Position numbers and translations under genes: made by a program. Below are positions 13,407-38,749 of a stretch of 64,000 nt of DNA, piece after piece. The notes below the pieces were generated by a model that was given only the letters and a program-made list of their open reading frames with translations, did not search any database and had not been told where the DNA came from. How positions within the stretch are numbered: position 1 is the first letter of the stretch; every line of letters begins with the position of its first letter. The DNA comes from Eubacteriales bacterium (GTDB lineage: Bacteria > Bacillota > Clostridia > Lachnospirales > WRAX01). Location: contig JAVBOO010000009.1 in assembly GCA_031550435.1 (NCBI GenBank), positions 39,202-103,201 of the forward strand. The letters are read 5' to 3'.

Positions 13407-13439
13407 TAAGTCGTTTAAGATCTATTCAAGGGCGCAATA

Positions 13440-13547
13440 TTGATCCCCGATTAAACCTTGCGGTTTATTCACCCCACTTTACCGGCCCTGCGGGCCTAAG
13501 GTGGATCTAGGCGACAAGTTTAGCGAATTGTTTGAGTGTCGCCTCAA
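13440..13547 (+). mobile_element. repeat family A, copy 1 (structured ~108-bp MITE-like element with TA flanks)
   Basis: TTGATCCCCGATTAAACC...GGCGACAAGTTTAGCGAA...TGTCGCCTCAA flanked by TA (13438-39) and TA (13548-49). Homologous to 33262-33369 and 38512-38619. It lies in the rpoC 3'UTR, upstream of the terminator. Confidence 0.7.
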
Positions 13548-13559
13548 TAGTATACGGTT

Positions 13560-13760: not shown

Positions 13761-14118
13761 TCGAGCAGACCGGACGGTCGCGTGCGCTTAGCCGCATGAG
13801 GAAAGTCCGGGCTTTGAAGGGCAGGGTGCCGGATAACGTCCGGCGGAGGCGACTTCAGGGACAGTGCAACAGAAATAAACCGCCGTTTTTAAAACGGTAA
13901 GGATGGAAAGGTGAGGTAAGAGCTCACCGGCGTCTTGGCGACAATACGCGCTATGTAAACCCCACCCGAAGCAAGGCCGAACAGAAGCACAGGCTCCGAT
14001 TTCGGAAGCCTAAAGATTGCCCAATCCGCTTCAGGTAGTGCCGCTCGAGGTCGCCGGCAACGGCGATCCCAGATAGATGACCGTTCAAGACAGAACCCGG
14101 CTTACAGGTCTGCTCACT
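13761..14118 (+). ncRNA. rnpB: RNase P RNA, bacterial type A
   Basis: Universal motifs GAGGAAAGTCCGGGC (about 13799-13813) and ACAGAACCCGGCTTA (about 14090-14104). The P1 stem pairs GAGCAGACC (13763-13771) with GGTCTGCTC (14107-14115). Length is ~355 nt. The ORFs predicted here are spurious. Confidence 0.93.
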
Positions 14119-14136
14119 ATTATAAACATACATGTT

Positions 14137-17199: not shown

Positions 17200-20100
17200 A
17201 TGAAGACCAAGAAGTTATTTGCAATATTGCTAACATTTGCAATGACCATGGGAGCGTTTTCGTTGCAGCAAGCAAAAGCTTCGTCAACCGTTACTGTAAC
17301 GGTTCACTATCACAATGACAACGGTAATTATGCCGAAACCGTAATCGATGTGTGGAATTTCTCTGATACGGCGGCTGAAGCCGGTACGGTGGCTATTGAC
17401 GAGTACGGCTGGAAAAACACGTTTACCGTAAACGGAGTAAACGAAAAGGAATATGTTAAGTTCAGGATCACAAGCGACAGCGTTTTCCCGACAGACGTTC
17501 GCTATCTTGACCCTGCCGGGTCTTCCTCGATAGAAGTTTGGCTTATCGACGGAGACGCAAAGGCTTACGGGCAGCCTGTCAAAATCGACCCGCAATATAC
17601 AACTGCCAAAGACGGCGTGAGGTATGTAGCAGTTCAGGCAATACCCCTGTACTTTAACACAGGTAACGTAAACAACTATACAATTACATACGGGGCTTCT
17701 AACGGCTATTATACACCGGGAACCGAATCCGGATCGGGCGTTGCCGCAAACCTCGGCGGAACGCCTCCTTCTCCGAAAGTAACCCTACTTCGCAACCTCA
17801 ATCGTTTCCGCGCTAATCAGCAGGACGATTGGTGGGAGATTTGCCCGGCTTCGAAGAGCGTACTCGTAAACTATTCTACAACAACGCAAACGGCGGAAAT
17901 GACGACAGGCTCACATGCCGCGGCTAACAACGGTCTTGGTTTTAACCTCAGAGAAGGCGACGTTTATCCTCTTTTCCTCGGGCTTGATCTGATTCAGGAA
18001 GGGCCTGTTTCCGCAGAAGGAAAGACCTTCCTTTCGCTTAAGTCTATCAGAGGAATGACTCAAACTTTGGGCGGAATTATTGCCGGAGCCGATACCTATC
18101 TTCTTCCCAACATGTTTGTCGGCTACGAAAAGGTGCTTGATTTTACAAGTAATCCGGAAGCTGTAGGCTTTTCTGGTGAAATGCTTAAGGCTTTCAAGCA
18201 GTTTATCGACCTTGAAGCTCAGTCAACGGACGGAATGCCTATTGCCTGCTCTATTACGCTTGACGGCAAAAAGGTATTCTCATACGCCGCGGGAACCGTG
18301 GCACAATTCAGAACAACCCCCAACGGAAGCGGCGGCTACAACGCCGCGATCCCGATACCGGTTTCCGAACAGGTTCCGGTTACGGCGGATTCGTTGTTTG
18401 ACCTGGCATCAAACAGTAAAATGTACTCCGGTATCTATGCTATGGAGAGACTTGTATCCCAAGGCCTTCTTGACCTAGACAAAAAGCTCAACGAATATCC
18501 GGGCTGGGAAAACTACAAGGACTCTTATATAGTTTATACCGGAAAAATGTCAGGCTCAAACTATGTAGGAAAGACCGGAAAAGACAATACAACAATCAGG
18601 CAGATACTCAGCCATTATGCAGGGCTCGAGGCAGACCCCGAGTACCAGAACAGGATACAGGCGGGGGAGCTTTGGTACCATACCGACAATCCTTATGACA
18701 GAACAGAGATAATCGACATGATTTGCAAGACACCGCTGAGATACAATGTCGGAACAACGTATAACTACAGCGACGTTGACTTTATGATAGTAGCTCTTCT
18801 GGCGGAAAGCATAACAGGCGTGCCGTTTGACGTTTATATGGAGCAAATATACAAAGAGGAGCTCGGCGTTCAAAATACGGCGTTTAATCCTCTTCTCAAG
18901 GGTTACGACCAAGATCAGCTCGTCGCGACATGCGAAATAAACGGAAACACCAGAGACGGAAACGTTATGTACGGCTTTATGGATGACGGTTACACTCCGG
19001 TTCCTGAAAGAAGCTATACAATTCAAGGTGAAGTTCACGATGAAAAGGCATATTACGCAATGGGCGGAATTTCCGGCCATGCGGGCCTGTTCTCGAGTGT
19101 GAACGATATGTCTGAGCTTATGCAGTTAGCGCTTAACTGCGGTAGCTATAACGGCTTCAACATGTTTGACAGGCAGACACACCAAATGTTTACGACTCCT
19201 TTCACTACAACGGCTACAGTCGGCTTGGGCTGGTGGATGAACAATACATCCGGCTCGATTATGTCATACTTCTCTTGGGGTCCAAGCATGCAGACTTACG
19301 GGCATCAGGGCTGGACAGGAACAATTTCCGTAATCGACCCGCTTAAGGGCATGTCTGTTACCTGCTTAACAAGTATGAAGCACGGCCCGACAATAAACGC
19401 TGCAAACACATTTACGAACACACAGGCCAGAATCGGCGGAAACGGCGAATATTCGGGCCCCGGAAACCTTGTGCTTCAAAACTGCTATGCTCAGGGTTCA
19501 ATGGACTTTATTGAACACGATACAGTATTATGGGGAGTAAGCTATAATCCCTTACCGGGCAGAGATCTCAAGGTCGAGCTGGTTTTGGACGGAAACTATG
19601 CAACCGGCACAAAGCCTGCAGGAGAGCCCGGTTATGTATTCGACGGCTGGTACAAAGACGAGGCTTTTACACAGCCTTGGAACTTTGATACTGACAAGGT
19701 AATGTGCGATGTATCGCTTTACTCAAAATGGGTTGAAGCTGAAAACGTACCGGCTGAGCCAACCGAGACCACTTGGAAGGTCAGATTTGTCAGAACGGGT
19801 ATAGCTACCCAGATTGTAGCGGACGGCGATACGGCAACTCCGGTTGCCGACCCGGCCAGAGCAGGCTATAAATTCGGCGGCTGGTTCACAAACGCGGATT
19901 GCACGGCTGTTTGGGATTTCGCAACCCCTGTTACCTCAAATATCAATTTGTACGCAAAATGGACTGAGCTTCACACCATAACCTTCGATACAAACGGCGG
20001 CTCAATCGTAAGGCCTCTTCAGGTTGCAGACGGAGAATATGCCGCGGGAGCGCGCTACAGTCCTTCAAAGGTTTCGTCGATTTCTATACCGGATTCGCTT

Positions 20101-21300
20101 CCCTTCCTCGGTTGGTTTACGGACAGCGAGATGACAACTCCCTGGGTTCCCTCGGCCGAACCGGTCACGGAAGATATGACCGTCTACGCTAAATGGGGAA
20201 TCAGAAACTACTATGTCAAGTTTGAGAGAAGAGGCGGTTCGGGAACAATCCCCAACCAGTCGGTTACTTACGGCGGAACAGCTACGCAGCCGACAGTAAC
20301 GCCGACAAAGGCAAACAGTGTGTTCGAGGGCTGGTATACAAATGCCGGACTTCTTACTCCTTACAATTTCTCTGCGCCTATTACGGCCAACACTGTTATT
20401 TACGCTAAGTTTACAACGGATTTGGGTAACACGACCGTTCCGCTAAAAGCCCCAGAATACAACCAAACTCCGCAGCCTAAAGTAGCGGGTGTTGGATACA
20501 CGGGCGATGTGGAATGGTTTAACGTAACGGACAATGTGCCGCTTTCGGGAACATTTGAAGCCGCAAAGGTTTATAGGGCGACGGTTACACTCGACTCTTG
20601 CGCTTATCCTCCACAGACTCCGCTTTCGTTCTACAGATGGCCCACAACCGCTCCCGCAGTGACGGTTGCCGGCCAGACTGTTCAAAACACGCAGGTTTCC
20701 GGAGGCTATGTAACAGGAAACAAGCTCACTTTTACGGTTGATTTCGCTCCTATACCGGATGAGCTTGTCAGCATCGGCACGATAGATCCGATAAGTGTTC
20801 CGAACAACAGGGTAACACTTGAACAGGCTAAGGCAATGCTCGGCAATACGGTATCCATCGTAACCGAAAAAGGCTCGGCAGATACCGCCGAAGTGGTTTG
20901 GAACGCGGATACAGTACCGGCTTACGATATGACTGTTGCCGGGGTATACGAGCTTACCGGTACAGTGACGCTTCCGCATGAGGTGACGAACCCCAACGGA
21001 GTTTCACTCACGGTTGTAACGACTGTCACAGTCGAAGACCCGATTTACGCAACAAAGGTAACAGTTAGCGCGCCTGCTCTTATGAACCTTAAAAAAGGCA
21101 CGACAGTTAATGTAGCGGCAACCGTTGAACCTGCTGATGTCTCGTACCCGGGAGTTGTATGGGTTTCGTCGAACCCGCTTATTGCAACTGTTGACAGTCA
21201 GGGCAATGTTAAGGGTATCACGGCGGGAACCGTAATAATAACGGTCACATCGACAGACGGAAAGGCTAAATGCGTTTTCGCGGTAAAAGTAACGAACTAA
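17200..21300 (+). CDS. secreted multidomain serine hydrolase (beta-lactamase/PBP-like core) with CBM-like, Listeria-Bacteroides repeat and Big_2 domains
   Basis: 1366 aa with a signal peptide. The N-terminal domain is pullulanase-associated-like (VTVHYHNDNGNY...VWNF). The hydrolase core carries SxxK (SNSK), YNYSD and GHAGLFSS. There are four Flg_new-type repeats (GWYKDEAFTQPWNFDT, GWFTNADCTAVWDF, GWFTDSEMTTPW, GWYTNAGLLTPYNF). The C-terminal domain is Big_2 (ITAGTVIITVTS...AVKVTN). Confidence 0.85.
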   Translation: MKTKKLFAILLTFAMTMGAFSLQQAKASSTVTVTVHYHNDNGNYAETVIDVWNFSDTAAEAGTVAIDEYGWKNTFTVNGVNEKEYVKFRITSDSVFPTDVRYLDPAGSSSIEVWLIDGDAKAYGQPVKIDPQYTTAKDGVRYVAVQAIPLYFNTGNVNNYTITYGASNGYYTPGTESGSGVAANLGGTPPSPKVTLLRNLNRFRANQQDDWWEICPASKSVLVNYSTTTQTAEMTTGSHAAANNGLGFNLREGDVYPLFLGLDLIQEGPVSAEGKTFLSLKSIRGMTQTLGGIIAGADTYLLPNMFVGYEKVLDFTSNPEAVGFSGEMLKAFKQFIDLEAQSTDGMPIACSITLDGKKVFSYAAGTVAQFRTTPNGSGGYNAAIPIPVSEQVPVTADSLFDLASNSKMYSGIYAMERLVSQGLLDLDKKLNEYPGWENYKDSYIVYTGKMSGSNYVGKTGKDNTTIRQILSHYAGLEADPEYQNRIQAGELWYHTDNPYDRTEIIDMICKTPLRYNVGTTYNYSDVDFMIVALLAESITGVPFDVYMEQIYKEELGVQNTAFNPLLKGYDQDQLVATCEINGNTRDGNVMYGFMDDGYTPVPERSYTIQGEVHDEKAYYAMGGISGHAGLFSSVNDMSELMQLALNCGSYNGFNMFDRQTHQMFTTPFTTTATVGLGWWMNNTSGSIMSYFSWGPSMQTYGHQGWTGTISVIDPLKGMSVTCLTSMKHGPTINAANTFTNTQARIGGNGEYSGPGNLVLQNCYAQGSMDFIEHDTVLWGVSYNPLPGRDLKVELVLDGNYATGTKPAGEPGYVFDGWYKDEAFTQPWNFDTDKVMCDVSLYSKWVEAENVPAEPTETTWKVRFVRTGIATQIVADGDTATPVADPARAGYKFGGWFTNADCTAVWDFATPVTSNINLYAKWTELHTITFDTNGGSIVRPLQVADGEYAAGARYSPSKVSSISIPDSLPFLGWFTDSEMTTPWVPSAEPVTEDMTVYAKWGIRNYYVKFERRGGSGTIPNQSVTYGGTATQPTVTPTKANSVFEGWYTNAGLLTPYNFSAPITANTVIYAKFTTDLGNTTVPLKAPEYNQTPQPKVAGVGYTGDVEWFNVTDNVPLSGTFEAAKVYRATVTLDSCAYPPQTPLSFYRWPTTAPAVTVAGQTVQNTQVSGGYVTGNKLTFTVDFAPIPDELVSIGTIDPISVPNNRVTLEQAKAMLGNTVSIVTEKGSADTAEVVWNADTVPAYDMTVAGVYELTGTVTLPHEVTNPNGVSLTVVTTVTVEDPIYATKVTVSAPALMNLKKGTTVNVAATVEPADVSYPGVVWVSSNPLIATVDSQGNVKGITAGTVIITVTSTDGKAKCVFAVKVTN

Positions 21301-21303
21301 CGA

Positions 21304-21425
21304 GGAAGTGTTGAAAATTGCGCACGAAACCCACTTTAGTGGGTTGAGCGAGCGGCGCTCTCCATTGAAAAATGGTGCCTTTCCATTTTCAATGGAAAGC
21401 CGCAAGGCGATTTTTCAACATGCCC
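21304..21425 (+). mobile_element. MITE family B, copy 1 (122 bp)
   Basis: GGAAGTGTTGAAAATTGCG...CGATTTTTCAACATGCCC with imperfect TIRs and a 5-bp TSD, AACGA at 21299-21303 and 21426-21430. It is inserted 3 nt after the stop codon of the 1366-aa gene. Confidence 0.8.
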
Positions 21426-21468
21426 AACGAACCATGAATCAACGCGCTGACTAAATGTCGGCAAACAA

Positions 21469-21621: not shown

Positions 21622-22563
21622 TTAGAACACACCTATATCCAGTTCGTTTCTTAGTTTCTTTAACAACTCGATTCCGGCGATACTGCTGCCCTTTTCGTTC
21701 AGTGCCGGGCCATAGATACCTACCCCGACTTTTCCGGGAGAGACAGACATGATGCCGCCGCCAACGCCGCTTTTTGACGGCAGACCGACTGATACGGCAA
21801 AGCTTCCGGATTCGTCATACATTCCGCAAAGCATCATCATTGCGTTAACGGTTTGAGCCGCTTCCGGAGAGAAAACGCGCTTGCCCGTCGAAACGGATAT
21901 ACCCCTGTTTGCAAGAGTTGCCGCAATTTGCGCAAGCTCCTTGACCGTAACCTTAATTGCGCAAATTTTGAAATACGCGTCTAAAACCTCTTCAACATCT
22001 CCGTCCAAAACGCCGACGCTCTTCATAAAATACGCCAAAGCGCGGTTTCTCGAGCCCGTCATCTTTTCCGACTTGTAAACACCTTCATGAATTCCTATGT
22101 TCTTGTTTCCCGTAATTTCATGGAGCAGCGACAGTATTCTGCAAAATTTATCTTCATAGGTTTTGCCGTTTGAAAAGCCGATACTCAGTATTGCTCCTGA
22201 GTTTATAAACGGATTAAGCGGTTTGTGCGAGTCTCTCGTTTCGAGGTTTACTATAGAGTTAAAACCGTCATGCGAAGGTTCGAAGCTGATTTTAGTTTTT
22301 ATTCTGTTCAAATCGGTGTCGATAAGAGCGGCAAGCAGTATGAGAACCTTTGATACGCTTTGCATAGTGAATTCGGCAGTGCTGTCTCCGGCAAAATGCT
22401 CTCTTAAATCCGTTCTTATGAGATAAATCCCCAGCAAATTTTTGTCATACGCTGAAAGCTCGGGTATATAAGAGGCGACTTTTCCGGTTTTACAGTACGG
22501 GCGGCATTCTTTGACCATTCTGGTTAATAAGTCGTTAATGGAAATCACTCTCCTCAAATGCAA
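21622..22563 (-). CDS. glsA: glutaminase
   Basis: 313 aa with GKVASYIPELS, the serine-lysine motif QSVSKV, and PSKSGVGGGIM. This is the typical glutaminase A family. Confidence 0.9.
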   Translation of the reverse strand: MHLRRVISINDLLTRMVKECRPYCKTGKVASYIPELSAYDKNLLGIYLIRTDLREHFAGDSTAEFTMQSVSKVLILLAALIDTDLNRIKTKISFEPSHDGFNSIVNLETRDSHKPLNPFINSGAILSIGFSNGKTYEDKFCRILSLLHEITGNKNIGIHEGVYKSEKMTGSRNRALAYFMKSVGVLDGDVEEVLDAYFKICAIKVTVKELAQIAATLANRGISVSTGKRVFSPEAAQTVNAMMMLCGMYDESGSFAVSVGLPSKSGVGGGIMSVSPGKVGVGIYGPALNEKGSSIAGIELLKKLRNELDIGVF

Positions 22564-22605: not shown

Positions 22606-23166
22606 CTACATGCACCTGTACTGTTCCGTGCCATCGCTGTAAAAATCGCTGCCTTTGCTGTCTATAGCAACGATAACGGGAAGTTTTTCGATTACGAGCC
22701 GTCTGACAGCCTCGGTTCCCAAATCGTCAAACGCGATAACTTCGGATAATTTAACGCATTTTGCCATAAGAGCGGCAGCTCCGCCGATTGCGGCAAAATA
22801 TACTCCTCCGTGGTCGATTATGGCCTGCTTAACTTCGGGAGAGCGGTAGCCTTTGCCTATCATGGCCTTTAGCCCGTGCGAAATCAAAAGCGGGGAGTAA
22901 GCATCCATTCTTCCGCTTGTCGTCGGGCCGACTGAGCCGATGGCTTGGCCCGGCTTCGCTGGGCAGGGACCCGCATAGTAAATGACTTTGCCGTTCAGCT
23001 CAAACGGCAGGGTTTCGCCTTTCTGTATCATCTCATAGAGCCGCTTGTGCGCGGCATCCCTGCCTGTGTAGATTTCACCGGAAAGGTACACCATTTCACC
23101 GGCTCTGAGCGAAAGCATGGCTTCGTCGGTTAACGGAACACTGACAATTTTTAAGGTATCGTTCAT
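22606..23166 (-). CDS. Fe-S type (class I) hydro-lyase beta subunit (fumarase/tartrate dehydratase family; probable mesaconase beta)
   Basis: GEIYTGRDAAHKRL, YYAGPCPAKPG, SVGPTTSGRMD and GKGYRS match the class I fumarase C-terminal domain. RBS TAGGAGG precedes ATG 23166. The ORF track extends to 23208. Confidence 0.85.
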   Translation of the reverse strand: MNDTLKIVSVPLTDEAMLSLRAGEMVYLSGEIYTGRDAAHKRLYEMIQKGETLPFELNGKVIYYAGPCPAKPGQAIGSVGPTTSGRMDAYSPLLISHGLKAMIGKGYRSPEVKQAIIDHGGVYFAAIGGAAALMAKCVKLSEVIAFDDLGTEAVRRLVIEKLPVIVAIDSKGSDFYSDGTEQYRCM

Positions 23167-23176
23167 GGCAAACCTC

Positions 23177-24019
23177 CTAAAGAGTGACTGTAGCATGTCT
23201 TGCGGCATGGCAGCATATGTTTATGGCTACCGGCAGACCTGCGATATGGGTCGGGTATGTTTCGATATTGACACCGAGGCAGGTCGTTGTTCCTCCAAAC
23301 CCTCCGGGCCCGAGGCCTGTTTTGTTTACAAGTTCCTTTAGCTCGCTTTCGATTCCCGCCCAATAATTATCCGGGTGAGACTCATCTATACTTCTTAGCA
23401 AAGCCTTTTTTGCTATAAGCGCCGCTTTTTCCATTGTGCCGCCGATACCGATACCTAGTATTATCGGCGGACAGGCGTTCGGGCCGGCTTTGAGAGCCGT
23501 TTCCGCAACAAAGTTCTTGATGCCTTCGATGCCCTCGGAAGGCTTAAGCATTTTGAGCGCGCTCATGTTCTCGCTGCCAAAGCCCTTTGGCGTGACAGTA
23601 ATCGTGAAACTGTCCCCCGGCACTATAGTATAATGTATGACGGCGGGAGTATTGTCATTTGTGTTTACACGAGCTATCGGGTCTCTTACAACCGATTTTC
23701 TGAGATAGCCTTTTTCATAGCCGTTTCTGACGCCTTCGTTTATTGCGTCTTCAAGTCCGCCGCCGACAACATGCACATCTTGGCCAACATCAACAAAGGC
23801 AACCAATACCCCGGTATCCTGGCACATGGGGCAGCTGTCGTTTGCGGCTATGTCTGCGTTTTTGATAAGCGTTTCTATAACGCTTTTACCCAGCGGAGAT
23901 TTTTCGGTCTCGAGTGACTTTTTGAACTCGTTTCTTATATCATCGGAAAGATAGTAATTAGCGTCAATGCAAAGCTTTTCGACAGCTTCGCTTATTTTAC
24001 TTACATGAATTTCCCTCAT
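23177..24019 (-). CDS. Fe-S type (class I) hydro-lyase alpha subunit (probable mesaconase alpha)
   Basis: 280 aa with the cluster-ligand region PMCQDTGVLVAFVDVG, GIGIGGTMEKAA and NICCHAARHA. These match the class I fumarase N-terminal domain. Confidence 0.85.
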   Translation of the reverse strand: MREIHVSKISEAVEKLCIDANYYLSDDIRNEFKKSLETEKSPLGKSVIETLIKNADIAANDSCPMCQDTGVLVAFVDVGQDVHVVGGGLEDAINEGVRNGYEKGYLRKSVVRDPIARVNTNDNTPAVIHYTIVPGDSFTITVTPKGFGSENMSALKMLKPSEGIEGIKNFVAETALKAGPNACPPIILGIGIGGTMEKAALIAKKALLRSIDESHPDNYWAGIESELKELVNKTGLGPGGFGGTTTCLGVNIETYPTHIAGLPVAINICCHAARHATVTL

Positions 24020-24068
24020 GTCCGCCTCCGGTTTATAAAAGTTGTTTCGGCTGTTTTTTATTACATCG

Positions 24069-24346
24069 GCAACAAAATATATGAAAACGCTATATGGAAG
24101 TGTTGAAAATTGCGTACGAAACCCACTTTAGTGGGTTGAGCGAGCGGCGCTCTCCATTGAAAAATGGTGTTTTTCCATTTTCAATGGAAAGCCGTAAGGC
24201 AATTTTTCAACATGCCCTATATTTTGTTGTTCCCTCGCTAAGACGCAGATGCGCCGCATTGGAGCGCTGCGGCATATCTAGACGCGTCTGCTCGGCACGA
24301 GTAACCGCGTAAGTATTTTATGCGGTATTTAACTTCCGCGGTAATA
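24069..24346 (+). repeat. repeat family C, copy 1, interrupted by MITE B2
   Basis: 24069-24095 plus 24223-24346 align without gaps to C2 (38364-38512) once B2 and one TSD copy are removed. Similarity may continue to about 24370. It lies between the DUF4387-like gene and the hydro-lyase alpha gene. Confidence 0.75.
24096..24217 (+). mobile_element. MITE family B, copy 2 (122 bp), nested in C1
   Basis: Same termini as B1, with about 5 mismatches to B1 by eye. The TSD is TATAT at 24091-24095 and 24218-24222. Confidence 0.85.
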
Positions 24347-24404
24347 TGAATTTCAGGTTTCAAAAATACACCGACAAAGTCAGACTTTGTCGGCATAAGT
24401 TTGA

Positions 24405-24722
24405 TTACATATTAAACTCAAATTTCATAAGCGGAGCATGCTGCTGCGCGCCGTACACATCGGTCTCTCCGAGATTTCCGGAACATATCGGACGGACTAT
24501 GGTTATTTTGATAGCCTTAGCAGGCTCAAAATTAACTATCTCCATCACATCGTTTTTATCGATGTTATAGAGCTTTGAAAACGATTCGGGCGTGAATACG
24601 TTCGCATCGGCGACCTGCCTGTACAGTTCGTGGGTCTTGAAAATTATATCAAACGTAAGCTCATACGGGCCCGAATTTTTGCTGCGGATTACGTCCGCAA
24701 GGTCAATCAGTCTGTAGTGCAT
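24405..24722 (-). CDS. DUF4387-like small protein (AtuA C-terminal-domain-like)
   Basis: 105 aa. The motifs IRSKNSGPYELTFDIIF and ETDVYGAQQHAPL are what I recognise as the DUF4387 signature. The family usually sits adjacent to, or fused with, DUF1446/AtuA. Confidence 0.65.
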   Translation of the reverse strand: MHYRLIDLADVIRSKNSGPYELTFDIIFKTHELYRQVADANVFTPESFSKLYNIDKNDVMEIVNFEPAKAIKITIVRPICSGNLGETDVYGAQQHAPLMKFEFNM

Positions 24723-24736
24723 ATGCTCGCCTCCCT

Positions 24737-26095
24737 CTACAGTTGTTTAATTTCGATTGGGAAAAATTCGCTCGGATCGTCAACTTCCATAAGGTGATAC
24801 AAGCTGAACTCGTAAACCTCGCCGACTTTGAAGTCCGAGGGCGAGAACGGGAATGCAAGGTTACCGGCTGTTGAAATTCTGCCTTCGTAGCCGTAGTGAA
24901 GCATTGTAGAGCGGGCAAAGCTGCAAATCGTGTTGGCAAGAGATTGTTCTGCCGCAACCGCCTCTATGACTATGCAAAGCTCGTGGCTCGTTTCCTTCTC
25001 CAGACCGTCAAATATGGCCATAACGCCGTTTTTGCCGTAAATCTTGAAATCAAGGAAAAAGTCTTTGATTCCGAAGCTTTCGAAGTTGTTTTTAACTCTT
25101 GCCTTAACGCCTTCGATAATCGAGTCGATCTTGTTAATCATAACCGGATCTTTTGTAGCGGCAATGGAAACCGTTCTGTAGCCGACGCGCTTGACGCCTT
25201 CCAGCTTGATGAAGAAGCCTTCGGTCGGGATAAATTTGCTTCCGGATACCTTAACGTACTGCTCGTCGAGCTGTTCGAATTTCGTGCTCTTAAGATCAAG
25301 TATTCCGCCGGGTCCGGGAAGTATATAGGGGTTGGTCTTCTCGTAAAGTGTGTGAGCCGCAACTGACAAAGTTGTACATTTTCTGGCGGGATTAAGAGTG
25401 CAAACCTTGAAATAGTCATCTCCAAGATAGCCCATCATGCAGTCGGAGCCGCTCCCGGGTGTCGAGGCGATAGCGGCGCATTCGAGTATCTTGCCAAGAT
25501 GGATTGCAAGACCCTTATCATAACCCTTCATTATAGCGAGCGAAGCGAAGTTTGCAGGGTCATAAGCGCGACCGGCAAGTATAACCTGCGCACCCATTTC
25601 GAGCGCTTTTATCATCGGCTCAAAGCCCATTTGCGCAACGGTTCTTACGGTATCTTCAATATCCTTTTCCGTTGCTTCGGGAGCCGGATGAAGAGGTTTA
25701 ACTTTTCCTTGCTTAAACTTCTTAAGTATAACGTCCTTAGATATATCGGCGGGGATGACCGCAAGCTTGAAATGAAGGTTCTTTTCTTTTGCGATTTCCT
25801 CGATTATTTCGAGGTTCCATTTCAAATGGGGTTCCGCTCCGCTTCCGCCCGCCGTACCGATAATAACGGGTATGTTATTATCAAGCCCCGCGGGTATCAT
25901 GTAGGAAAGGTCTCTTTTGACCGAATTTCTGTCCGTGAACGAGATTCCGGCTCCCAGGTAGTACGGGCCGGGGTCTGTCGAGCCCGCGTCAACCGCAATA
26001 ACATGCGGCTTTCTTTTCATGCCTTCTTTGAAAGATTCTTCGGGGAAGCCGTAGCCTAATATGGCCGTAGGCGAAAGTATTCTCATTTCTTCCAT
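24737..26095 (-). CDS. AtuA-like (DUF1446-like) protein of unknown function
   Basis: About 452 aa from ATG 26095 (RBS GGGAGG 7 nt upstream; the ORF track starts at TTG 26110). The assignment rests mainly on size and tight adjacency (15-nt gap) to the DUF4387-like gene. It needs HMM confirmation. Confidence 0.5.
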   Translation of the reverse strand: MEEMRILSPTAILGYGFPEESFKEGMKRKPHVIAVDAGSTDPGPYYLGAGISFTDRNSVKRDLSYMIPAGLDNNIPVIIGTAGGSGAEPHLKWNLEIIEEIAKEKNLHFKLAVIPADISKDVILKKFKQGKVKPLHPAPEATEKDIEDTVRTVAQMGFEPMIKALEMGAQVILAGRAYDPANFASLAIMKGYDKGLAIHLGKILECAAIASTPGSGSDCMMGYLGDDYFKVCTLNPARKCTTLSVAAHTLYEKTNPYILPGPGGILDLKSTKFEQLDEQYVKVSGSKFIPTEGFFIKLEGVKRVGYRTVSIAATKDPVMINKIDSIIEGVKARVKNNFESFGIKDFFLDFKIYGKNGVMAIFDGLEKETSHELCIVIEAVAAEQSLANTICSFARSTMLHYGYEGRISTAGNLAFPFSPSDFKVGEVYEFSLYHLMEVDDPSEFFPIEIKQL

Positions 26096-26122
26096 TACTT
26101 TTCCTCCCAACGTAAGCGCGCT

Positions 26123-27364
26123 TTACAGCACGTCTTTAAGTGCAAGTACTCTGCTCATTTCGTTGAAAACTATCATATAGCCCTCGTCAACGCCCATGCC
26201 GGGCTTTGCGAGTATTTGTACCGGCTGAGTAGCCATAGCGATCTGTGTACAAACCTGAGCCGAACGGTCAGTTTCGTTGCATGTTCCGCCCTGGTATGCG
26301 CCCATTCCGTTAGCCTTGCAATACAGAACGGCTTCGATTGTGTTGTTGACACCGCCCAAGTCAGGCGTTTTGATTTGGGCCATATGGCCGGCTTTAGCTT
26401 TTGTAAAATCTACAACGTCCTCGTAAGTGTTGCACCATTCGTCCGCTACGATTTCGACCTGAATGCCTTTCGCGTCTACAAGAGCTCTGATATCTCTCAA
26501 GGCGTTTATCTGAGCTTCGCGCTCTCCCATGTCAACGGGACCTTCAATGCGAAGTTTAAACGGTTTCGCGTTTTGCTCGAGCTTTCCGAGATAGTCGGCG
26601 ATTTTCTCGAAGTCAAAGTCGAATACCGGCCCGAGGTTTCCGTATACGTCTATATGGAATATAGGGTTGTAGCTTTCGGAAAAACGAAGTTTCGTCGTTC
26701 TTTCACTGAGCCATTTTACGTAATCCGCAAGCTTATCACCGTTTTTCCCTACCTTGTCTGTGTTGTTAAACAGAGCGTGAGGAAGTACGTCCGAGCCCTT
26801 GAGTATCATTTTGTCGGTGTTTGTGAATCTGTCGTCACCTGACTGGCTGAAAACGGGGATGTGTCTGTCCGCTATCTTAAGGCCGTATTCATCAGCGACA
26901 ATTTGAGCCATAAGCTTTTTCTTGGACTTTGCGACTGCGTCGAGACATGCCTGGGTTACGCCGTAACGTATAGCGGTGTGCATAAGCTTGCCTGTGACCG
27001 AGTCGATATGGCTGTCTGCAAGTTTTGCCATTTCTTTGAATGTAGTTATTTCCTTTCCCTTGAAGAGGGGAGCGATCTCTCTCTCTATGATAGGGATAAA
27101 ATCCTTTGCGAGGAAAAGAGGGTCTCTTCCGCCGGCACCGGAGTATTGAACGGCAGCGCAGTCGCCGTAGGCGATCTGCCCGTCCTCGAGTACAAACATA
27201 ACGGAAACGGATTCGCCTGCCTGGCGAACGGCCGAGAAGCCCTCAGTCGCGGGAGTGCCTATATAAGCGGCTCCGTCGGCAACCGCATTGAGCTTTATAG
27301 CTTTTTGGTCGTCGAAGAAGAAACCGGTTCTTCCCGCCGAGCATACTACATTTATAATCTTCAT
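26123..27364 (-). CDS. mal: 3-methylaspartate ammonia-lyase
   Basis: 413 aa, the length of clostridial MAL. The N-terminus MKIINVVCSAGRTGFFFDDQKAIK is nearly the canonical MAL start. The rest looks like an enolase-superfamily C-terminal barrel. Confidence 0.92.
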   Translation of the reverse strand: MKIINVVCSAGRTGFFFDDQKAIKLNAVADGAAYIGTPATEGFSAVRQAGESVSVMFVLEDGQIAYGDCAAVQYSGAGGRDPLFLAKDFIPIIEREIAPLFKGKEITTFKEMAKLADSHIDSVTGKLMHTAIRYGVTQACLDAVAKSKKKLMAQIVADEYGLKIADRHIPVFSQSGDDRFTNTDKMILKGSDVLPHALFNNTDKVGKNGDKLADYVKWLSERTTKLRFSESYNPIFHIDVYGNLGPVFDFDFEKIADYLGKLEQNAKPFKLRIEGPVDMGEREAQINALRDIRALVDAKGIQVEIVADEWCNTYEDVVDFTKAKAGHMAQIKTPDLGGVNNTIEAVLYCKANGMGAYQGGTCNETDRSAQVCTQIAMATQPVQILAKPGMGVDEGYMIVFNEMSRVLALKDVL

Positions 27365-27499
27365 AATATCCTCCGAATTGGTTCATTTGATTATCGCCGC
27401 GAAAGCGTCCCGCAGTGTTTGCGCTCTTGAAACTCAAAGACTGACTTTTGGGCAGTAAATTCTTATCAGCCGGCTTTTGCGCGGCCTTATAATCGCTCT

Positions 27500-28963
27500 C
27501 TAATTGTTACCGGGTCTTCCCACGAGGTGACCCTTTGATATAGCGTTAATATCGTCGATAACCATTTGGAAGCCGACAGCTCGTTTTTCGTATGCTGCTC
27601 TTTCTTCAAGACGCTTTTTGTGGAAATCCTTGATATCGTTTGTAAACGGAAGGTTAGCGCAGTCAAGGAAACGGACGGCACCGTTATTGTCTCTGGCAGG
27701 AAGCATTTTTCCGTAGTTGATCTTGCTCGGAGCAAACGGAACATCGATAACGCCGGCTTCAAAGGCTCTGACAGCTCCGATTGCGATATCTCCTTCGCCG
27801 AGTTCTATAACCTTTTTAAGCATACATCTTGTTTCGCGCTTAATGAGATCGGCTTCATCGACAACGCTTTGAATACCTACCATGTCGTGATCTTTAAGCA
27901 TGGTCACAAGCTGCTTTGTGGCACGGAGTCCGGCTGCGTTGGCTTCCATCGTCGGTATGCCCATGGCCTCGTGAGGCGTTTTGACTATAACTTTCGTAGC
28001 CTTCGAGAGCACGGCGGCTGCCGCTCCCCATGAAATAACGCCGAACGCTTTTGCTTCGTCCTGCGGGAAACCGCCCATCCACTGGTGGAATACTGTTGTA
28101 ACGCTGACATCCTTGTATCCGAATTTTTCGAGATACTCCTCAGTCAGACTGAGAAGGGATCTGACTGCGGCTATATCCTGAACAAGATTGCCGCACTGGC
28201 CGTAACCGACCGTTATGTCTTTGACGCCTTGTTCCGCCGCGAGCAGACTCTCTATAACTGCCACAGCATGAGAGATTGAGGGAGGAACGAGCGTTCCCGT
28301 GAGAGGGCCGAACGGTTCTCTGTTGATGGTAACGCCGGCATCGGCATAAATACCGATGAGCCTGTCTACGTATTGCCAGTCCTTGATTGTCTTTGCAAGA
28401 GAGTAGTTCTTCGAATAGGGTATGTTATAGGAAATTCCGCCGCCTTCATAAGAAGTGAAGCCGCCCGCCATAGTGATTTCTGCGAGCAGTCTAGCGTCCG
28501 GCGTTCCGTGGCGAACCTGCACGGGACTCTTGAGCGACATGTTTACCTGGCGGCAAACATCCACGCCGTAGTTGACCGCCGGGAAGCCGTTAAGCATTGA
28601 ACGGTCATACTTTCTGCTCTCCTCTATACCTTCTTGCGCCTCTTTGTATCTGTTGAGTCTCGTATAGGCGTCGATGGTCGAAGGGAGAAGGTCTACTTCG
28701 CCTTCCTGTTCGAGGTATTGCAGCAGTCTGATGTGTTTTTCGGGCAGCGCAACGCCTGCACGGGGCTGGGTCAGCGTTATGCCGTTTTGCTTAGCATATG
28801 CAAGCTTTTTTGAGAATATCCGTGAGTCGGGCAGGCTCCTGTGGTATTCAACCGCCTTTTCAAAATCAACGCCTTTACCTGTGGGCCATTGTTGAAGGAC
28901 ATCCTTTTGAATGCTGTAAAACTCATCATCGGAAAGCTTTTTGTTTTTGAAGCCTGTTTCCAT
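27500..28963 (-). CDS. glmE: glutamate mutase (methylaspartate mutase) epsilon/E subunit
   Basis: 487 aa with typical GlmE/MutE length and blocks ([37 protein letters not shown]). It lies between glmL and mal. Confidence 0.9.
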
Positions 28964-28975
28964 CGTTAACCTCCG

Positions 28976-30361
28976 TTAAACTTCAATGATTTCTTTGTTC
29001 ATAATCGTCAATGCCAACTCGGGATATTCTTTACCCACAAGGCCCATTGAAGCAAATATATATTTTTTGTCAATAAAGAACTTTGAACTTTCGGGTTTGA
29101 GAGTCATAGGACTTCTCGGGGAGGCCAAAGCGGCCTTTAACATTGCGGCTGGATCCGGGCTGTTGATTATCGGTCCGCCTATGCCGACAGTCGCTCTGAT
29201 TTTTCGCAAATCTTTGCCGGTCTGCATAAATGTTTCTCCAAACGGAGTAAAAACCGATTCGAGTGTTCCGCAGTGCCTGTCCGTTGCAATTTCGACAGCC
29301 AGTGCGCCCAGCTTTTCGTCTATAAGCTTTTCGGTGCTTCCCGGAGAGGATATAATGCTCGGATCTTTCCGACATTCTGCCGACCAATCATGCAAAACCT
29401 GTTCGGGAAGTCCGGTCTCGTAAGCGATTCTCTCGAAAGTAGCAGTTTCGCAAAGTGACGGCATGCTGTATCTCAGTCCCAAATCTCCTTCGACACTTCG
29501 TTTTGCAAACGGCTCGGGAAGACCCTTTTCCAGCGTGTTCGGATCTGTCGGCCGGCCCGCTGCCATTGAGTACACGTCCGTTGTCGCTCCGCCGACATCC
29601 ACAGCAAGAAATTCTCCCCAGCCCGGTAAAGATTCCGTTCCTCTCGAAAGCAGTTCGCAACCTTCCAAAACGGCCAGAGGAGTCGGGATTATTTGGGCAG
29701 TCATCATTTCCTGAGCTTTTGAAAGACCCTTCGCAACAATAATTTTTTTTATGAACAAGTCTCTGATAGCAGACTTTGCGGGCGCTATTTCGAGCCTGTT
29801 AAACACCGGCATAACGTTTTTACTGGGTATTACGAGCTTGCCGCTCGCACTCAGTATCTCGGCAACCTCTCTCATCGCGGATTTGTTCCCGGCAACGATT
29901 ACCGAAAGAGGAGCGTCAATCTCGGCAAGTTTTTTGGCGTTGTGGATAATAACTTCCTTGTTGCCGCCATCGGTTCCGCCCGATAAAAGTATTATGTCGG
30001 GGTTTATATCTTTGATTTCGTCTTGTTCCTCAGCGCTCAGCTCGTAGCTGTATGTTTTGACGACTTTCGCGCCGGCGCTGGAAGCGGCCATTCTTGAGGC
30101 CTTTGAGGTCAAATCCGGAACAAGCCCGACAGCTACCATTTTAAGACCGCCGCCGGCGCTCGAACAGGCAAGACGCTCGGAAAATTCAATTTTACCCGTC
30201 TGCTTGTATAGCAGCTGCATCGCGTTTTCAAAACCGATGCATATGTCGGTTTCTATGGTTGTGAAGGCTTTAGCCGTACCGATAACCGAACGAGTCTGCG
30301 TATCTATTGCCGTTACTTTGGTAAACGTACTGCCAAAGTCGGTAGTCAGTACATACATCAA
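28976..30361 (-). CDS. glmL: glutamate mutase accessory/reactivase protein GlmL (MutL)
   Basis: 461 aa. It has the ASKHA-like N-terminus [14 protein letters not shown] and a second phosphate motif [11 protein letters not shown]. It occupies the canonical position between glmS and glmE. Confidence 0.85.
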
Positions 30362-30771
30362 GCAACACCCAAATCGCTTTTAATATCGCCAATCGCTGTT
30401 TCCGGCGAAGTTCCGGGCGGGTAAACCCTTGTGAAGCCCATTTGCTTGAAACGAGCGGCGACGGCTGTGAAATCAGCCTTACCTACAACGAGGTTTCCTC
30501 CTACATAAAGAGGAATATTCTTTAAACCGGCCTCATCGCATTTTTCCCTCAGACCTCTGCAGTCGATTTCTCCGTGGCCGTAGAGCGAAGAAACCATAAT
30601 AGCCGAAGCGCTTGTCTCTATTGCCGCTTCAATGAATTCTTCCTGAGAAACCATAACTCCAAGGTTGATGATTTCGAATCCGGCCTGAGTGAAAGCATAG
30701 TCAAGAATTTTGTTTCCGACCGCATGAACATCCGCGCCGATTACTCCTAAAACGATTTTCTTCTTTTCCAT
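30358..30771 (-). CDS. glmS: glutamate mutase sigma/S subunit (B12-binding)
   Basis: 137 aa from ATG 30771 (RBS GAGGTAGG). Cobalamin-binding DxHxxG motif (GADVHAVGN) and SSLYGHG. A 4-nt overlap with glmL suggests translational coupling. The ORF track extends to 30822. Confidence 0.9.
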
Positions 30772-30784
30772 AGAACCTACCTCG

Positions 30785-31768
30785 TTAAATTTTTTTGGCA
30801 AAATTTTTTGCCTTTTCCTCAATATATATGAAAGAACCTCTTTCGATTGTGTAGTTAAAAATCACGACATTTCCGCCATGCCGGCAGTAATCCGATATTT
30901 GCTTGTTAATCGGGTACATGGGCATTAAAGCATATGCCGGAGGGATAATCAAGTAGGACTTTTCGTTATAAGCTTTAAATGCGTACGAGTCTGACTGCTC
31001 GGATATAACAAAGGTCTCTGTGGTAAAACCGCAGTTCAAATTTTTGAGATTACTTTCGATGATATGCGCAAACCTCGCGCTTTCTGTCACGATCCCAACG
31101 TTCGCATTCTTTGGGATAGCGTTAAGCCCTGCAATAGTATTTACATCCGGAGACAGCACGGTTTTGACTATCTTTTTCTCAAGCGGTGAAATGAGTTTTG
31201 CCAGGTCGTCGTAGTGAGTTGTTGTGGTAAGAATAAAGTCAAACGCATCTAATACGTTTGTCGGATAGGAATAACTTGTTATTTCGTGCAGCAAAAAACC
31301 CGCAAACCTGATATTTGCGAGTATTGCAACCTGATGTCTTATGATTTCCAGGGTTTCCGGGTTACAGTCAATAGCCGCAACCTGTATAATCCCGTCGCTG
31401 TTTTGTTTCTTTTCGGCAGCTGCCCTAAACATGACCGTAATTTCGGGTACGGTGTAGCCCTCGGATACAAAATCCGAAATAAAAGCGGAAATTTTATCTT
31501 GGCAGCTTCTGTCCGGTCCCGCCTCTTTTTTCGCGACATATGTTCCGCTTCCTCTGCCGACAGTTAAAAAACCGTCCTTAATAAGAAGCGTGTACGCGCG
31601 CTTGACAGTGCCCCTTGATATACCGAGCTGTGCCGATAAGCTGCGTTCGGAAGGAAGTTTATCGGAAGGACGCATGCTCTCTGCGGCAACGGCCTGAGCG
31701 ATATTAACGTAGAGCTGTTTGTATACGGGTACGCTGCTGTATTTATCAATGCTTATACCGTGTTCCAT
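30785..31768 (-). CDS. GntR-family transcriptional regulator with a C-terminal ligand-binding-type domain
   Basis: N-terminal winged HTH: [15 protein letters not shown]...[41 protein letters not shown]. It is the first gene of the methylaspartate operon. Confidence 0.85.
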
Positions 31769-32051: not shown

Positions 32052-33284
32052 ATGAAAACTGCTGTTGTTATTGCCGAGTATAACCCGTTTCATAACGGAC
32101 ATAAGTATCATATCGAAAAGACGCGTGAGGTCACGCACGCCGAGAACGTAGTAGTTATTATGAGCGGCAACTATGTTCAGCGCGGCGAACCGGCCATATG
32201 CGACAAGTATGTCAGGACGCGCTGCGCCTTGGAAAACGGAGCCGATATGGTGATAGAACTTCCGTTTCCTTATGCTTGCGCAAGTTCGGAAATTTTCGCT
32301 TTCGGAGCGGTATCCCTCGCGCACGAAACGAGGATTGCGGACTGTATTTGCTTTGGCTCGGAGTGCGGAGATCTGCCGCTGCTTAACGGCATAGCTGACG
32401 CGGCCGCTAATGAGGGGGAGGTATTTCGGCGCGAACTTAAACGCTGTCTGGAGGACGGGGTCTCTTTTGCAAAAGCAAGAGCAAATGCCTTGAAATCGGT
32501 TTTGGGCAATGGGTTCGAACTGAGACTGTCCAACGATATACTTGCCGTTGATTACTTAAAAACGCTGAAAAACCTCGGGTCAGCGCTCATACCGTTTACG
32601 GTTAAAAGAACAAACGACTATAATTCGTGCGAAATTGAAGGAAGTGTGGCATCTGCCACGGCTATCAGAAAGGCTATTACAGACGGAGATTACGCTGCGG
32701 TTAAAATGACCGTTCCCCCGGGCTGTCTGAAACTCTTGGAGCAATGCTTGGAAGAAGGGTCTTATCCCGTAACATCGGATATGTTTTCGGACATATTGCG
32801 TTACAGGCTTATGGCTCTTTCAAACAGCGAATTGGCGGAGATTGCGGATATATCGGAAGGTATAGAGAACAGAATGACAAAGCTTTTGCCCTGCGCGGGT
32901 TCGTTTTCGGGGCTTGTTTCGGCCGTAAAAACCAAGCGTTATTCTCAGACGAGGATACAGCGTGCTCTAATGCATGTAATATTGGGGATAACCGACAGAG
33001 ATTTGCGTGAGTTCGCAAAAAAACGTCCGCCGTATATTCGCGTGCTGGGATTCAAAAAAACAGCTTCCAAGCTGCTTTCCGAGATGGAGAGACGGGCGGA
33101 ACTGCCTGTGATAACAAATATTCCGAAGCTTCCTGAATGTTTGGATGCTCGAGCAAGGGAGCTCTTGGACAAGGAGATTACCGCCACGGACATATACAAC
33201 TCCGTGCTCCCGAAAAAGGACAGAAAAAAAGGCTACGAGTATTCGCAGCCGCTTATCGTTATTGATCCCCCGATTAAACCATGA
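32052..33284 (+). CDS. tmcAL: tRNA(Met) cytidine acetate ligase (YlbM/UPF0348 nucleotidyltransferase)
   Basis: 410 aa. The N-terminus MKTAVVIAEYNPFHNGHKYH...VIMSGNYVQRGEPA...VIELPFPYA closely parallels B. subtilis YlbM/TmcAL. The last 8 codons and the stop lie inside repeat A2. Confidence 0.9.
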   Translation: MKTAVVIAEYNPFHNGHKYHIEKTREVTHAENVVVIMSGNYVQRGEPAICDKYVRTRCALENGADMVIELPFPYACASSEIFAFGAVSLAHETRIADCICFGSECGDLPLLNGIADAAANEGEVFRRELKRCLEDGVSFAKARANALKSVLGNGFELRLSNDILAVDYLKTLKNLGSALIPFTVKRTNDYNSCEIEGSVASATAIRKAITDGDYAAVKMTVPPGCLKLLEQCLEEGSYPVTSDMFSDILRYRLMALSNSELAEIADISEGIENRMTKLLPCAGSFSGLVSAVKTKRYSQTRIQRALMHVILGITDRDLREFAKKRPPYIRVLGFKKTASKLLSEMERRAELPVITNIPKLPECLDARARELLDKEITATDIYNSVLPKKDRKKGYEYSQPLIVIDPPIKP

Positions 33285-33369
33285 GGTTTAATCACCCCCT
33301 TACACCGGCTTGCGGGCCAAAGGGGGATTGAGGCGATAAATTTAGCGAACAGTTTAATTGTCGCCTCAA
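33262..33369 (+). mobile_element. repeat family A, copy 2
   Basis: TTGATCCCCCGATTAAACCATGAGGTTTAATC...ATTGAGGCGATAAATTTAGCGAACAGTTTAATTGTCGCCTCAA. The left flank is TA and the right flank is TT. It overlaps the 3' end of tmcAL. Confidence 0.7.
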
Positions 33370-33443
33370 TTTATATGTAAACGCTGATTACTTGACTTTG
33401 GACAGAAACACGGCGGATTAAATCAGCACTTACATAAAATCAT

Positions 33444-38337: not shown

Positions 38338-38363
38338 AATAACAACTCCAAATAATATACTTC

Positions 38364-38511
38364 GCAACAAAATATAGTAAAACGCTATGTTTTGCTGTAC
38401 CCTAACTAAGACGCAGATACGCCGCATTTGACCGCTGCGGCGTATCTAAGCGTGTCTGCAAGACTCAAGTAACCGTGTAAGTATTTTATTCGGTGTTTAA
38501 CTTCCGCGGTA
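38364..38511 (+). repeat. repeat family C, copy 2 (uninterrupted on its left side)
   Basis: GCAACAAAATATAGTAAAACGCTATGTTTTGCTG...GATACGCCGCA-TTTGACCGC-TGCGGCGTATC...AACTTCCGCGGTA. It serves as the empty-site paralog for the B2 insertion. Its right end is interrupted by A3, and homology to C1 resumes at 38620. Confidence 0.75.
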
Positions 38512-38619: not shown

Positions 38620-38719
38620 TAATAATTTCAGAGCAAAATGATATCACTTTTAACGCAAGGTTACAAACGTTTTTTTGAAGAATAATTTAAACGGGCAAAA
38701 TGAATGGGGTATAAAACAG

Positions 38720-38749
38720 TTGACTTTGTTTAATGATAGGGCATATAAT
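38720..38749 (+). promoter_or_regulatory. orphan near-consensus promoter upstream of the mgtE leader
   Basis: TTGACT (38720-38725), 18-nt spacer, TATAAT (38744-38749). No convincing CDS follows for ~500 nt. Confidence 0.45.

Follow-up and report, generated by a model that had tools for sequence, protein, structure and literature searches.

A probable 122-bp MITE with 5-bp flanking duplications in three intergenic copies of a clostridial genome

Introduction

Bacterial MITEs such as the Correia/nemis elements of Neisseria and the RUP elements of Streptococcus pneumoniae are shorter than 200 bp, carry terminal inverted repeats within direct target repeats, occur in multiple intergenic copies without a transposase gene and fold as RNA into a long stem-loop, and in all of these respects they resemble the 122-nt repeat described here. 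The target duplication of Correia and RUP is TA, whereas that of the 122-nt element is 5 bp of variable sequence, and the element itself is unrelated to them in sequence. Miniature elements of the TIME/IMU type are derivatives of the Tn3 family, whose ends are inverted repeats of ~38 bp starting with GGGG; with repeats of this kind, TIMEs, IMU and NFM2-MITE usually measure 200–440 bp, unlike the 122-nt element, whose ends span ~19 bp. Movement of the IS26 type proceeds via cointegrates, and simple insertions of 122 bp are not its natural outcome.

The definition of bacterial MITEs given by Delihas 2011 (PMC3184786) includes a long stem-loop fold at the RNA level as a classic feature. The Tn3-derived TIMEs, IMU and NFM2-MITE are non-autonomous and have a 5-bp target duplication (PMC3184786), properties that they share with the 122-nt element. 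Another comparison is with bcr1 (group A repeats) of the Bacillus cereus group, which is ~155 bp long, is flanked by 5-bp direct repeats, adopts a cruciform-like fold with independent internal stem-loops and has no known transposase partner (PMC3184786). Likened by description only, bcr1 and the 122-nt element are both Firmicutes repeats of similar size with 5-bp flanks and internal stem-loops. However, bcr1 is tied to the specific motif TTTAT, and a mechanism resembling site-specific recombination has been suggested for it (PMC6542083), whereas the pentamers duplicated by the 122-nt element and by its relative in Oscillospiraceae bacterium Mx356_bin55 differ from one another (AACGA, TATAT, TAATC/AAATC and ATGAA), as expected for a staggered-cut transposase, and none of them is TTTAT.

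For the IS6/IS26 group, the sections of Harmer & Hall 2019 (PMC6807381) drawn on here give the terminal consensus GGTTCTGTTGCAAA, in which GG and G7 are near-invariant, and the entries covered from their table that have a recorded target-site duplication, clostridial long forms included, all have one of 8 bp. Set against these parts of the source, the termini of the 122-nt element follow the pattern GGnnnTGTTGnAAA and match the consensus at 10 of 14 positions, the near-invariant ones included, whereas its duplications are of 5 bp rather than 8 bp and its insertions are simple.

Results

Three copies of the element were found in the window, that is, the whole stretch of 64,000 nucleotides of DNA analysed from an uncultured Clostridia bacterium, precisely where and on the strands where an earlier sequence-only reading had placed them (Table 1). 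They are dispersed in these 64 kb, intergenic and set in unrelated flanks, and the homology between copies ends exactly at GG...CCC. Their gene contexts (one 3' end and the leaders of two unrelated genes) are unrelated. Copies 2 and 3 have the same orientation relative to their downstream genes. Pairwise identity is 117/122, 119/122 and 116/122 (95–98%), with seven variable columns in all across the three copies; the near-identity claimed earlier thus stands, while the accompanying range of ~3–5 differences has to be corrected to 3–6 per pair. No further copies, degenerate ones included, were detected in the window by profile search (nhmmer).

The same reading had denied the element any coding capacity and the window any transposase, and we arrived at both conclusions as well. 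The only ORF that touches the element (24094-24312) depends on an ATG made by the flank and is absent from the other copies. When all 39 window ORFs of at least 90 aa and one of 80 aa were screened against Pfam, none of the 40 matched a transposase, an integrase or another mobile-element gene, and four had no Pfam match at all.

Table 1. Copies of the 122-nt element, their flanking pentamers and the filled and empty D3 sites (window coordinates)
Feature	Position	Strand	Description
MITE copy 1	21304-21425	+	122 nt; starts 3 nt past the stop of a 1366-aa surface-protein ORF (17200-21300), in the convergent spacer ahead of a glutaminase gene (21622-22563, -)
Copy 1 duplication AACGA	left 21299-21303, right 21426-21430		5/5 match
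MITE copy 2	24096-24217	+	122 nt; inside repeat D3a, 76 nt upstream of the start codon of the class-I fumarate hydratase/mesaconase alpha-subunit gene (23177-24019, -)
Copy 2 duplication TATAT	left 24091-24095, right 24218-24222		5/5 match
MITE copy 3	39060-39181	-	122 nt; 89 nt upstream of the mgtE start codon (39271)
Copy 3 pentamers GATTT/GATTA	left 39055-39059, right 39182-39186		4/5 match
D3a	24062-24343	+	different repeat family, ~155 nt without the insertion; host of copy 2 (filled site)
D3b	38357-38511	+	uninterrupted paralogue of D3a (empty site); single target pentamer TATGT at 38386-38390

The ends of the element are imperfect inverted repeats (GGAAGTGTTGAAAATTGCG and GGGCATGTTGAAAAATCGCC) in which GG is followed by TGTTGAAAA and this in turn by (A)T(T/C)GC. 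They begin GGAAG and GGGCA, agree at ~14–15 of 19 positions once a 1-nt indel is allowed for, and cease to be alike after ~19–20 bp. The local end-to-end score is 10, compared with 4.7 ± 1.2 in random 122-nt windows, 0.2% of which score as high. The TGTTGAAAA core occurs six times in the window, always at an element end, where 1.2 occurrences are expected and none of 100 shuffles reaches six. With a score so seldom matched and a core so enriched, the inverted-repeat termini described previously are well founded, and both of the further interior hairpins described with them (AACCCAC-TTTA-GTGGGTT and CCATTGAAAAATGG/CCATTTTCAATGG) are present. Folded as RNA, the two strands of the element have an MFE of -52.8 and -50.8 kcal/mol (z = -5.5 and -5.9).

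The direct 5-bp repeats noted beside each copy are also as first described. In the orientation of the element, the pentamers of copy 3 read TAATC/AAATC. In the window, flanks match by chance at 5/5 positions with a probability of 0.0012 and at 4/5 or more with a probability of 0.017, giving a joint chance for the three copies of ~7e-8. Copy 2 and its host repeat further provide a filled site with an empty counterpart: after in-silico excision of copy 2 together with one TATAT, the remainder of D3a forms a 155-nt alignment to D3b that is ungapped across the junction, its sole gap being a 1-nt indel 27 nt to the left.

Beyond the window, we scanned 185,579 GTDB species representatives, a set that does not contain the source genome, for the exact left end. 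Of its 17 matches, 15 were chance or coding occurrences (e.g., peptidase-like ORFs reading ...EVLKIA...), and the related ones comprised only two loci, both in one Oscillospiraceae MAG. Comparison covers the three copies in the window, one full relative and one truncated relative. The full relative is a 171-nt element in Oscillospiraceae bacterium Mx356_bin55 (JAISVY010000035.1; locus L014, 4146-4316). Its first 19 nt are identical to those of the 122-nt element and are directly followed by a hairpin and then by a GA(G/A)CGAGCG motif; it has the same right end, TTTTCAACATGCCC, and its own 5-bp duplication, ATGAA/ATGAA (5/5). However, it exceeds the 122-nt element by 49 nt, its G+C-rich interior bears no relation to that of the 122-nt element, and its host belongs to a different order of Clostridia. 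Its hairpin, although at the same position beside the left end, is built from an entirely different stem sequence. The 171-nt element thus represents a sister family with the same ends and not a copy of the 122-nt element. The ORF toward which the truncated copy (L011) runs resembled a resolvase/transposase HTH at first sight; this candidate was dropped, and the ORF is read as whiA, and hence not as a mobile-element gene, on the basis of its sequence and its yvcK/rapZ/murB-like neighbours.

The parent insertion sequence had been left unnamed, and an insertion sequence with these termini was likewise not found in the window, the GTDB representatives, JGI metagenomes, IMG/VR or PLSDB, the collection scans requiring the exact 19-mer. 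All 16 matches of the left-end 19-mer in JGI metagenomes were due to chance; IMG/VR contained none, and a gapped two-end pattern gave 11 matches there, none with GG...CCC ends. Searched against PLSDB plasmids (blastn, E <= 10), the element returned three chance fragments only. Inspection of each fetched locus for a right end downstream of the left end revealed no full-length parent, and the terminal sequences as strings in the full text of papers matched only unrelated primers. Apart from the source MgtE itself, the closest homologues in the searched collections reach at most 67% for MgtE and at most 81% for RpoB (75–78% for Anaerotignum RpoB), and no closely related strain is among them.

The sole match to Rfam (Rfam 15) in the window was RNase P RNA at 13762-14120, with none on the element; permissive searches over copies 1 and 3 gave only sub-threshold noise (E > 0.3), and at copy 3, considered as a possible replacement of an M-box riboswitch upstream of mgtE, there was no M-box signal even at E <= 5. 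No promoter- or terminator-like consensus site was found inside the element, and a role for it as a promoter or terminator source was rejected on this ground. By reading of the sequence, the TTGAAA hexamers point inward, and the outward TTTCAA is a poor -35.

Discussion

We consider it highly probable that the element is a MITE of 122 bp, non-coding and non-autonomous, which derives from an insertion sequence of the cut-and-paste type (DDE transposase). A non-autonomous MITE had already been proposed in the sequence-only reading, and our results bear this out in size, terminal inverted repeats, target-site duplications, lack of coding content, dispersal of copies and strength of the fold, to which the filled/empty pair and the sister element of Mx356_bin55 are now added. 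The element had further been called recently active. With 95–98% identity between copies this is a reasonable inference, to which no date is attached, and the element appears to have been amplified recently in this lineage. Since the searches turned up no autonomous partner that shares these ends, the transposition chemistry is drawn from the footprint only: a transposase encoded elsewhere in the genome, or since lost, would bind both ends of the element; the target, A/T-rich pentamers such as AACGA, TATAT and TAATC/AAATC, would be cut with a 5-bp stagger and joined to the element ends; and gap repair would then yield the 5-bp duplication. An Oscillospiraceae element with an unrelated interior uses the same ends, so members of the cognate transposase family probably occur across Clostridia.

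Other accounts of these repeats have to explain both their structure and their boundaries. A functional structured RNA or regulatory repeat kept by selection on its fold, as has been proposed for B. cereus bcr1, with the mobile features being historical or secondary, would suit the strong folding of both strands (z about -5.5), yet any palindromic DNA folds equally on both strands. Of the seven variable sites, five are among the 38 unpaired positions, and at the remaining two the pairing is preserved (U-G to U-A, G-C to G-U), but with seven substitutions this enrichment is weak (binomial estimate ~0.03), and compensatory double changes are absent among the variable sites. The Mx356_bin55 element holds a hairpin at the same position with a different stem, and copies 2 and 3 lie 76 and 89 nt upstream of start codons in the same relative orientation; nonetheless, the gene contexts are unrelated, no Rfam match, promoter or terminator signal accompanies them, and the sequence is conserved in no relative among the GTDB representatives and JGI metagenomes. 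A conserved RNA gene at syntenic positions, the case named in advance as one that would count against mobility, is unsupported, given that the left end has only chance or coding matches beyond one MAG and that Rfam is empty for the element. Selection on the fold also leaves the duplications and the clean insertion into D3a unexplained. We regard it as a very unlikely account, which at best supplements the MITE reading and does not replace it.

Among mobile-element families, Tn3 deserves attention as the best-known source of 5-bp duplications. A Tn3-family derivative of the TIME/IMU type, moved by a Tn3-type transposase, would match the length of the target duplication and a right end that starts GGGC, but ends that start GGAAG/GGGCA and are alike for ~19–20 bp only make this origin very improbable. 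Derivation from an IS6/IS26-like insertion sequence is suggested by both ends, each of which matches the 14-bp consensus, as given in the sections of the source covered here, at 10/14 positions (PMC6807381); GG and G7, which are near-invariant, and the highly conserved G10 are among the matched positions, and positions 3 and 4, the most variable in the family, account for two of the four mismatches. Only 61 of the 127,972 14-mers of the window match as well (~5e-4), six of them being the element ends themselves. However, the likeness was spotted post hoc among many IS families, and the duplication is 5 bp, not 8, in four independent insertions (the three window copies and that of Mx356_bin55), which renders such a derivation quite improbable. 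Spread without transposition, whether as a REP/RAYT-type repeat, as an IS200/IS605-derived palindrome or as copies made by recombination or gene conversion, would be in keeping with a hairpin-rich, strictly intergenic sequence. However, the REP/RAYT and IS200/IS605-derived classes are not known to have target-site duplications or transposon-type terminal inverted repeats, whereas here terminal inverted repeats are present, homology between copies stops at GG...CCC within duplicated pentamers, and excision of copy 2 restores its target precisely. We therefore give this explanation almost no weight.

The IS6/IS26-like ends, GGnnnTGTTGnAAA, combined with simple insertions and 5-bp instead of 8-bp duplications also allow a bolder conjecture, which we hold to be doubtful: that the 122-nt element and its Oscillospiraceae sister are the footprints of an undescribed clostridial IS group or family, for which the left-end hairpin could form part of the recognition site. 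Such a new IS group or family, if real, could be discovered with these termini as bait. In any event, the conserved 19-nt terminus offers a specific means of probing for an insertion sequence not yet identified in Clostridia; as a MITE, the element is otherwise ordinary and opens no new question.

Taken as a MITE, the element accounts for three intergenic insertions, beside mgtE, the mesaconase/fumarate hydratase gene and a large surface-protein gene. Since the element as a whole folds into a long stem containing two hairpins, we speculate that copies transcribed together with adjacent genes (at the 3' end of the surface-protein gene and in the mgtE and fumarate hydratase leaders) may affect how stable the mRNA is or how it is translated. 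The MITE also accounts for the fragmentation of short-read assemblies at the insertion points: Logan short-read contigs of the same organism (SRR23967707 and SRR23967709) are short and stop inside or beside the repeats, which is the usual behaviour of multi-copy sequence. Small repeats are unusually dense in the window, with nine copies from three families, two of them nested in a third, and the source organism is a convenient natural case for MITE-into-MITE insertion.

Structure of the 122-nt element

The three 122-nt elements lie exactly at the positions and on the strands proposed in a sequence-only reading, and align without gaps over their full length; beyond a left boundary of GGAAG... 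and a right boundary of ...ATGCCC, similarity ends sharply. The copies agree pairwise at 117/122, 119/122, and 116/122 positions, and seven alignment columns vary. A repeat finder run on the window recovered these three copies, and a profile built from them found no others in the 64 kb, degenerate copies included. The inverted repeat at the ends is imperfect (GG, three unmatched bases, the core TGTTGAAAA, a one-base indel, and T(T/C)GC); among random 122-nt windows of the same sequence, only 0.2% reach its score. The 9-base core occurs six times in the window, always at an element end, compared with a mean of 1.2 in shuffled windows (0/100 shuffles reached six). Both internal hairpins described earlier exist and are recovered in the predicted fold, and RNA folding of the element strands gave z = -5.5 and -5.9.

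Bacterial MITEs are small, dispersed, and transposase-less, with terminal inverted repeats, flanking direct repeats, and a stable long stem-loop (Delihas 2011, PMC3184786), and the 122-nt element shows every one of these features that can be tested. Its size, ends, flanks, dispersed copies, and fold all fit, supporting the earlier interpretation as a MITE; the element is genuine and belongs to a well-known kind. Each copy carries the terminal-repeat motif TTGAAAA four times, twice at the ends and twice within the central hairpin arms (CCATTGAAAAATGG / CCATTTTCAATGG), with one pair per orientation. The internal pair could bind the transposase or be a remnant of an older nested element.

Repeats and other features in the window and in MAG Mx356_bin55
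Feature	Location	Strand	Remarks
MITE copy 1	21304-21425	+	starts 3 bases past stop codon of 1366-aa surface protein
MITE copy 2	24096-24217	+	76 nt upstream of class-I fumarate hydratase alpha subunit
MITE copy 3	39060-39181	-	89 nt upstream of mgtE
D1 family	13433-13552, 33255-33374, 38505-38624		~115-120 nt, 65-81% identical
D3 family	24062-24343		~155 nt; D3a, interrupted by MITE copy 2
D3 family	38357-38511		D3b
D3 family	63021-63102	-	partial
Sister element	L014 4146-4316	-	Mx356_bin55; complete, 171 nt
Left-end copy	L011 1712-~1775	+	Mx356_bin55; truncated, just downstream of ORF read as whiA
RNase P RNA	13762-14120	+	bacterial class A, 297 bits
Glutamate fermentation cluster	22606-31768	-	methylaspartate pathway, complete
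1414-aa ORF	47428-51672	+	FGAR amidotransferase-PurE

Insertion and target-site duplication

The plus-strand pentamers flanking copies 1, 2, and 3 are AACGA/AACGA, TATAT/TATAT, and GATTT/GATTA. Across window positions, flanks 122 nt apart match by chance at 5/5 bases in 0.12% of cases and at least 4/5 in 1.7%, and all three copies together have a chance of ~7e-8. The strongest evidence for insertion comes from copy 2, which is located within a D3-family repeat. With the element and one TATAT excised in silico, D3a aligned with its paralogue D3b over 155 nt (34 nt on the left side of the insertion and 121 nt on the right) with no gap at the junction, where D3b has a single TATGT (38386-38390). 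The pair represents a filled and an empty site in one window and shows clean insertion with a five-base duplication; this nested arrangement is of mild interest in that it provides its own empty-site control.

Behind this footprint we infer a DDE-type transposase, which would mobilize the element in trans by recognizing its ~19-bp ends and cutting the target with a 5-bp stagger, gap repair of which would leave the duplication. A site-specific, TTTAT-associated mechanism has been suggested for Bacillus cereus bcr1 (PMC6542083); the target pentamers here are A/T-rich without a fixed sequence, which argues against a mechanism of that type.

Two further repeat families accompany the element. D1 ends in TTGATCCCC...ATTAAAC on the left and in the reverse complement TTGAGGCGACAATTAAAC on the right, has TA on both flanks in two of three copies, and resembles an independent MITE of a type that duplicates TA. 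Its third copy, D1c, is inserted at the right end of D3b, and because both other families have inserted into D3 copies, D3 acts as a landing pad. D3 sequence also opens Logan contig L046, over its first 26 nt. A hairpin and then a T-rich run (ACCGCGTAAGTATTTTATGCGGT ATTTAAC) occur in this family, and a terminator scan detected them at 24304-24326. D3b, D1c, and MITE copy 3 lie consecutively in the 840-nt spacer upstream of mgtE (38428-39270), together with an 80-aa ORF (38650-38892) lacking a Pfam match; a search for an M-box riboswitch ahead of mgtE gave no signal, even at a permissive threshold.

Related termini and candidate parent families

Scanning the exact 19-nt left end across 185,579 species-representative genomes returned 17 matches, 15 of them chance or coding and two in loci of one MAG, Oscillospiraceae bacterium Mx356_bin55. 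The complete sister element there, flanked by perfect ATGAA/ATGAA, shares with the window element its first 19 nt, an immediately following stem-loop, the motif GA(G/A)CGAGCG, and the right end (TTTTCAACATGCCC), whereas its interior is unrelated and G+C-rich. It also lacks the internal TTGAAAA pair. Two distinct interiors with identical ends and equal duplication length are expected if a single transposase family serves separate deletion derivatives or captured sequences, and it is mildly interesting that these termini extend to a different Clostridia order. No related sequence was found by scans of JGI metagenomes, IMG/VR, and PLSDB, and none of the fetched loci had a matching right end further downstream, the mark of a full-length parent. 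Short-read Logan contigs of the source organism (SRR23967707 and SRR23967709) stop inside copy 3 or at adjoining repeats, as fits multi-copy sequence.

Tn3-type derivatives likewise leave 5-bp duplications but need ~38-bp GGGG-initiated repeats, which are absent from the 122-nt element. Other ISfinder families duplicating 5 bp are IS1380, ISLbi1, the IS1202 group, and IS1634. Against the IS6/IS26 terminal consensus GGTTCTGTTGCAAA (Harmer & Hall 2019, PMC6807381), each end agrees at 10/14 positions, including the near-invariant GG and G7, a likeness spotted post hoc and therefore a lead rather than a classification. Among the IS table entries examined from that source, all IS6/IS26 members with a recorded duplication have 8 bp, in contrast to the 5 bp here; a parent with IS26-like ends and so ill-fitting a duplication length would be mildly interesting.

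A functional RNA is an unlikely alternative reading of the 122-nt element, which may nonetheless have a secondary effect on neighboring transcripts. Of the seven substitutions, five are at unpaired positions (38 in all) and the two paired-site changes preserve pairing, a weak signal (rough binomial estimate ~0.03) given that the fold was predicted from one of these sequences, and none of the seven forms a compensatory double change. Suggestive too is the 7-9-bp hairpin directly after the left terminal repeat, present in both MAG copies and the window family and conserved in position, although not in stem sequence, across only these two families. However, no Rfam family matches the element, no promoter- or terminator-like site lies within it, and its sequence is not conserved in other genomes.

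Gene neighborhood and host

All three MITE copies are intergenic, beside mutually unrelated genes. Copy 1 occupies a convergent spacer between the surface protein (beta-lactamase-like, Listeria-Bacteroides repeat, and Big_2 domains) and a gene read from its translation as glutaminase, while the fumarate hydratase alpha gene next to copy 2 belongs to the methylaspartate-pathway cluster. A Pfam screen of all 39 window ORFs of at least 90 aa and the 80-aa ORF revealed housekeeping or cell-surface genes (rpoB, rpoC, purine operon, obg, and others), with no match to transposase, integrase, or recombinase families among the 40 and no Pfam match of any kind for 4/40. A member of the Clostridia, the host has no close relative among the collections searched: identity of its RpoB peaks at 81% with MAGs and lies at 75-78% with Anaerotignum, and its MgtE is at most 67% identical to anything except itself.

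The glutamate fermentation cluster encodes B12-binding MutS, MutL, MutE, methylaspartate ammonia-lyase, AtuA/DUF4387, a GntR regulator, and a two-subunit class-I fumarate hydratase (mesaconase), the genes of which are separated from the remaining cluster by MITE copy 2 and D3a. The RNase P RNA gene follows immediately after rpoC and repeat D1a. In the purine operon, a single ORF joins FGAR amidotransferase parts (linker, AIRS_C, and GATase_5) to a C-terminal AIR carboxylase domain (PurE, residues 1246-1393), an uncommon fusion.
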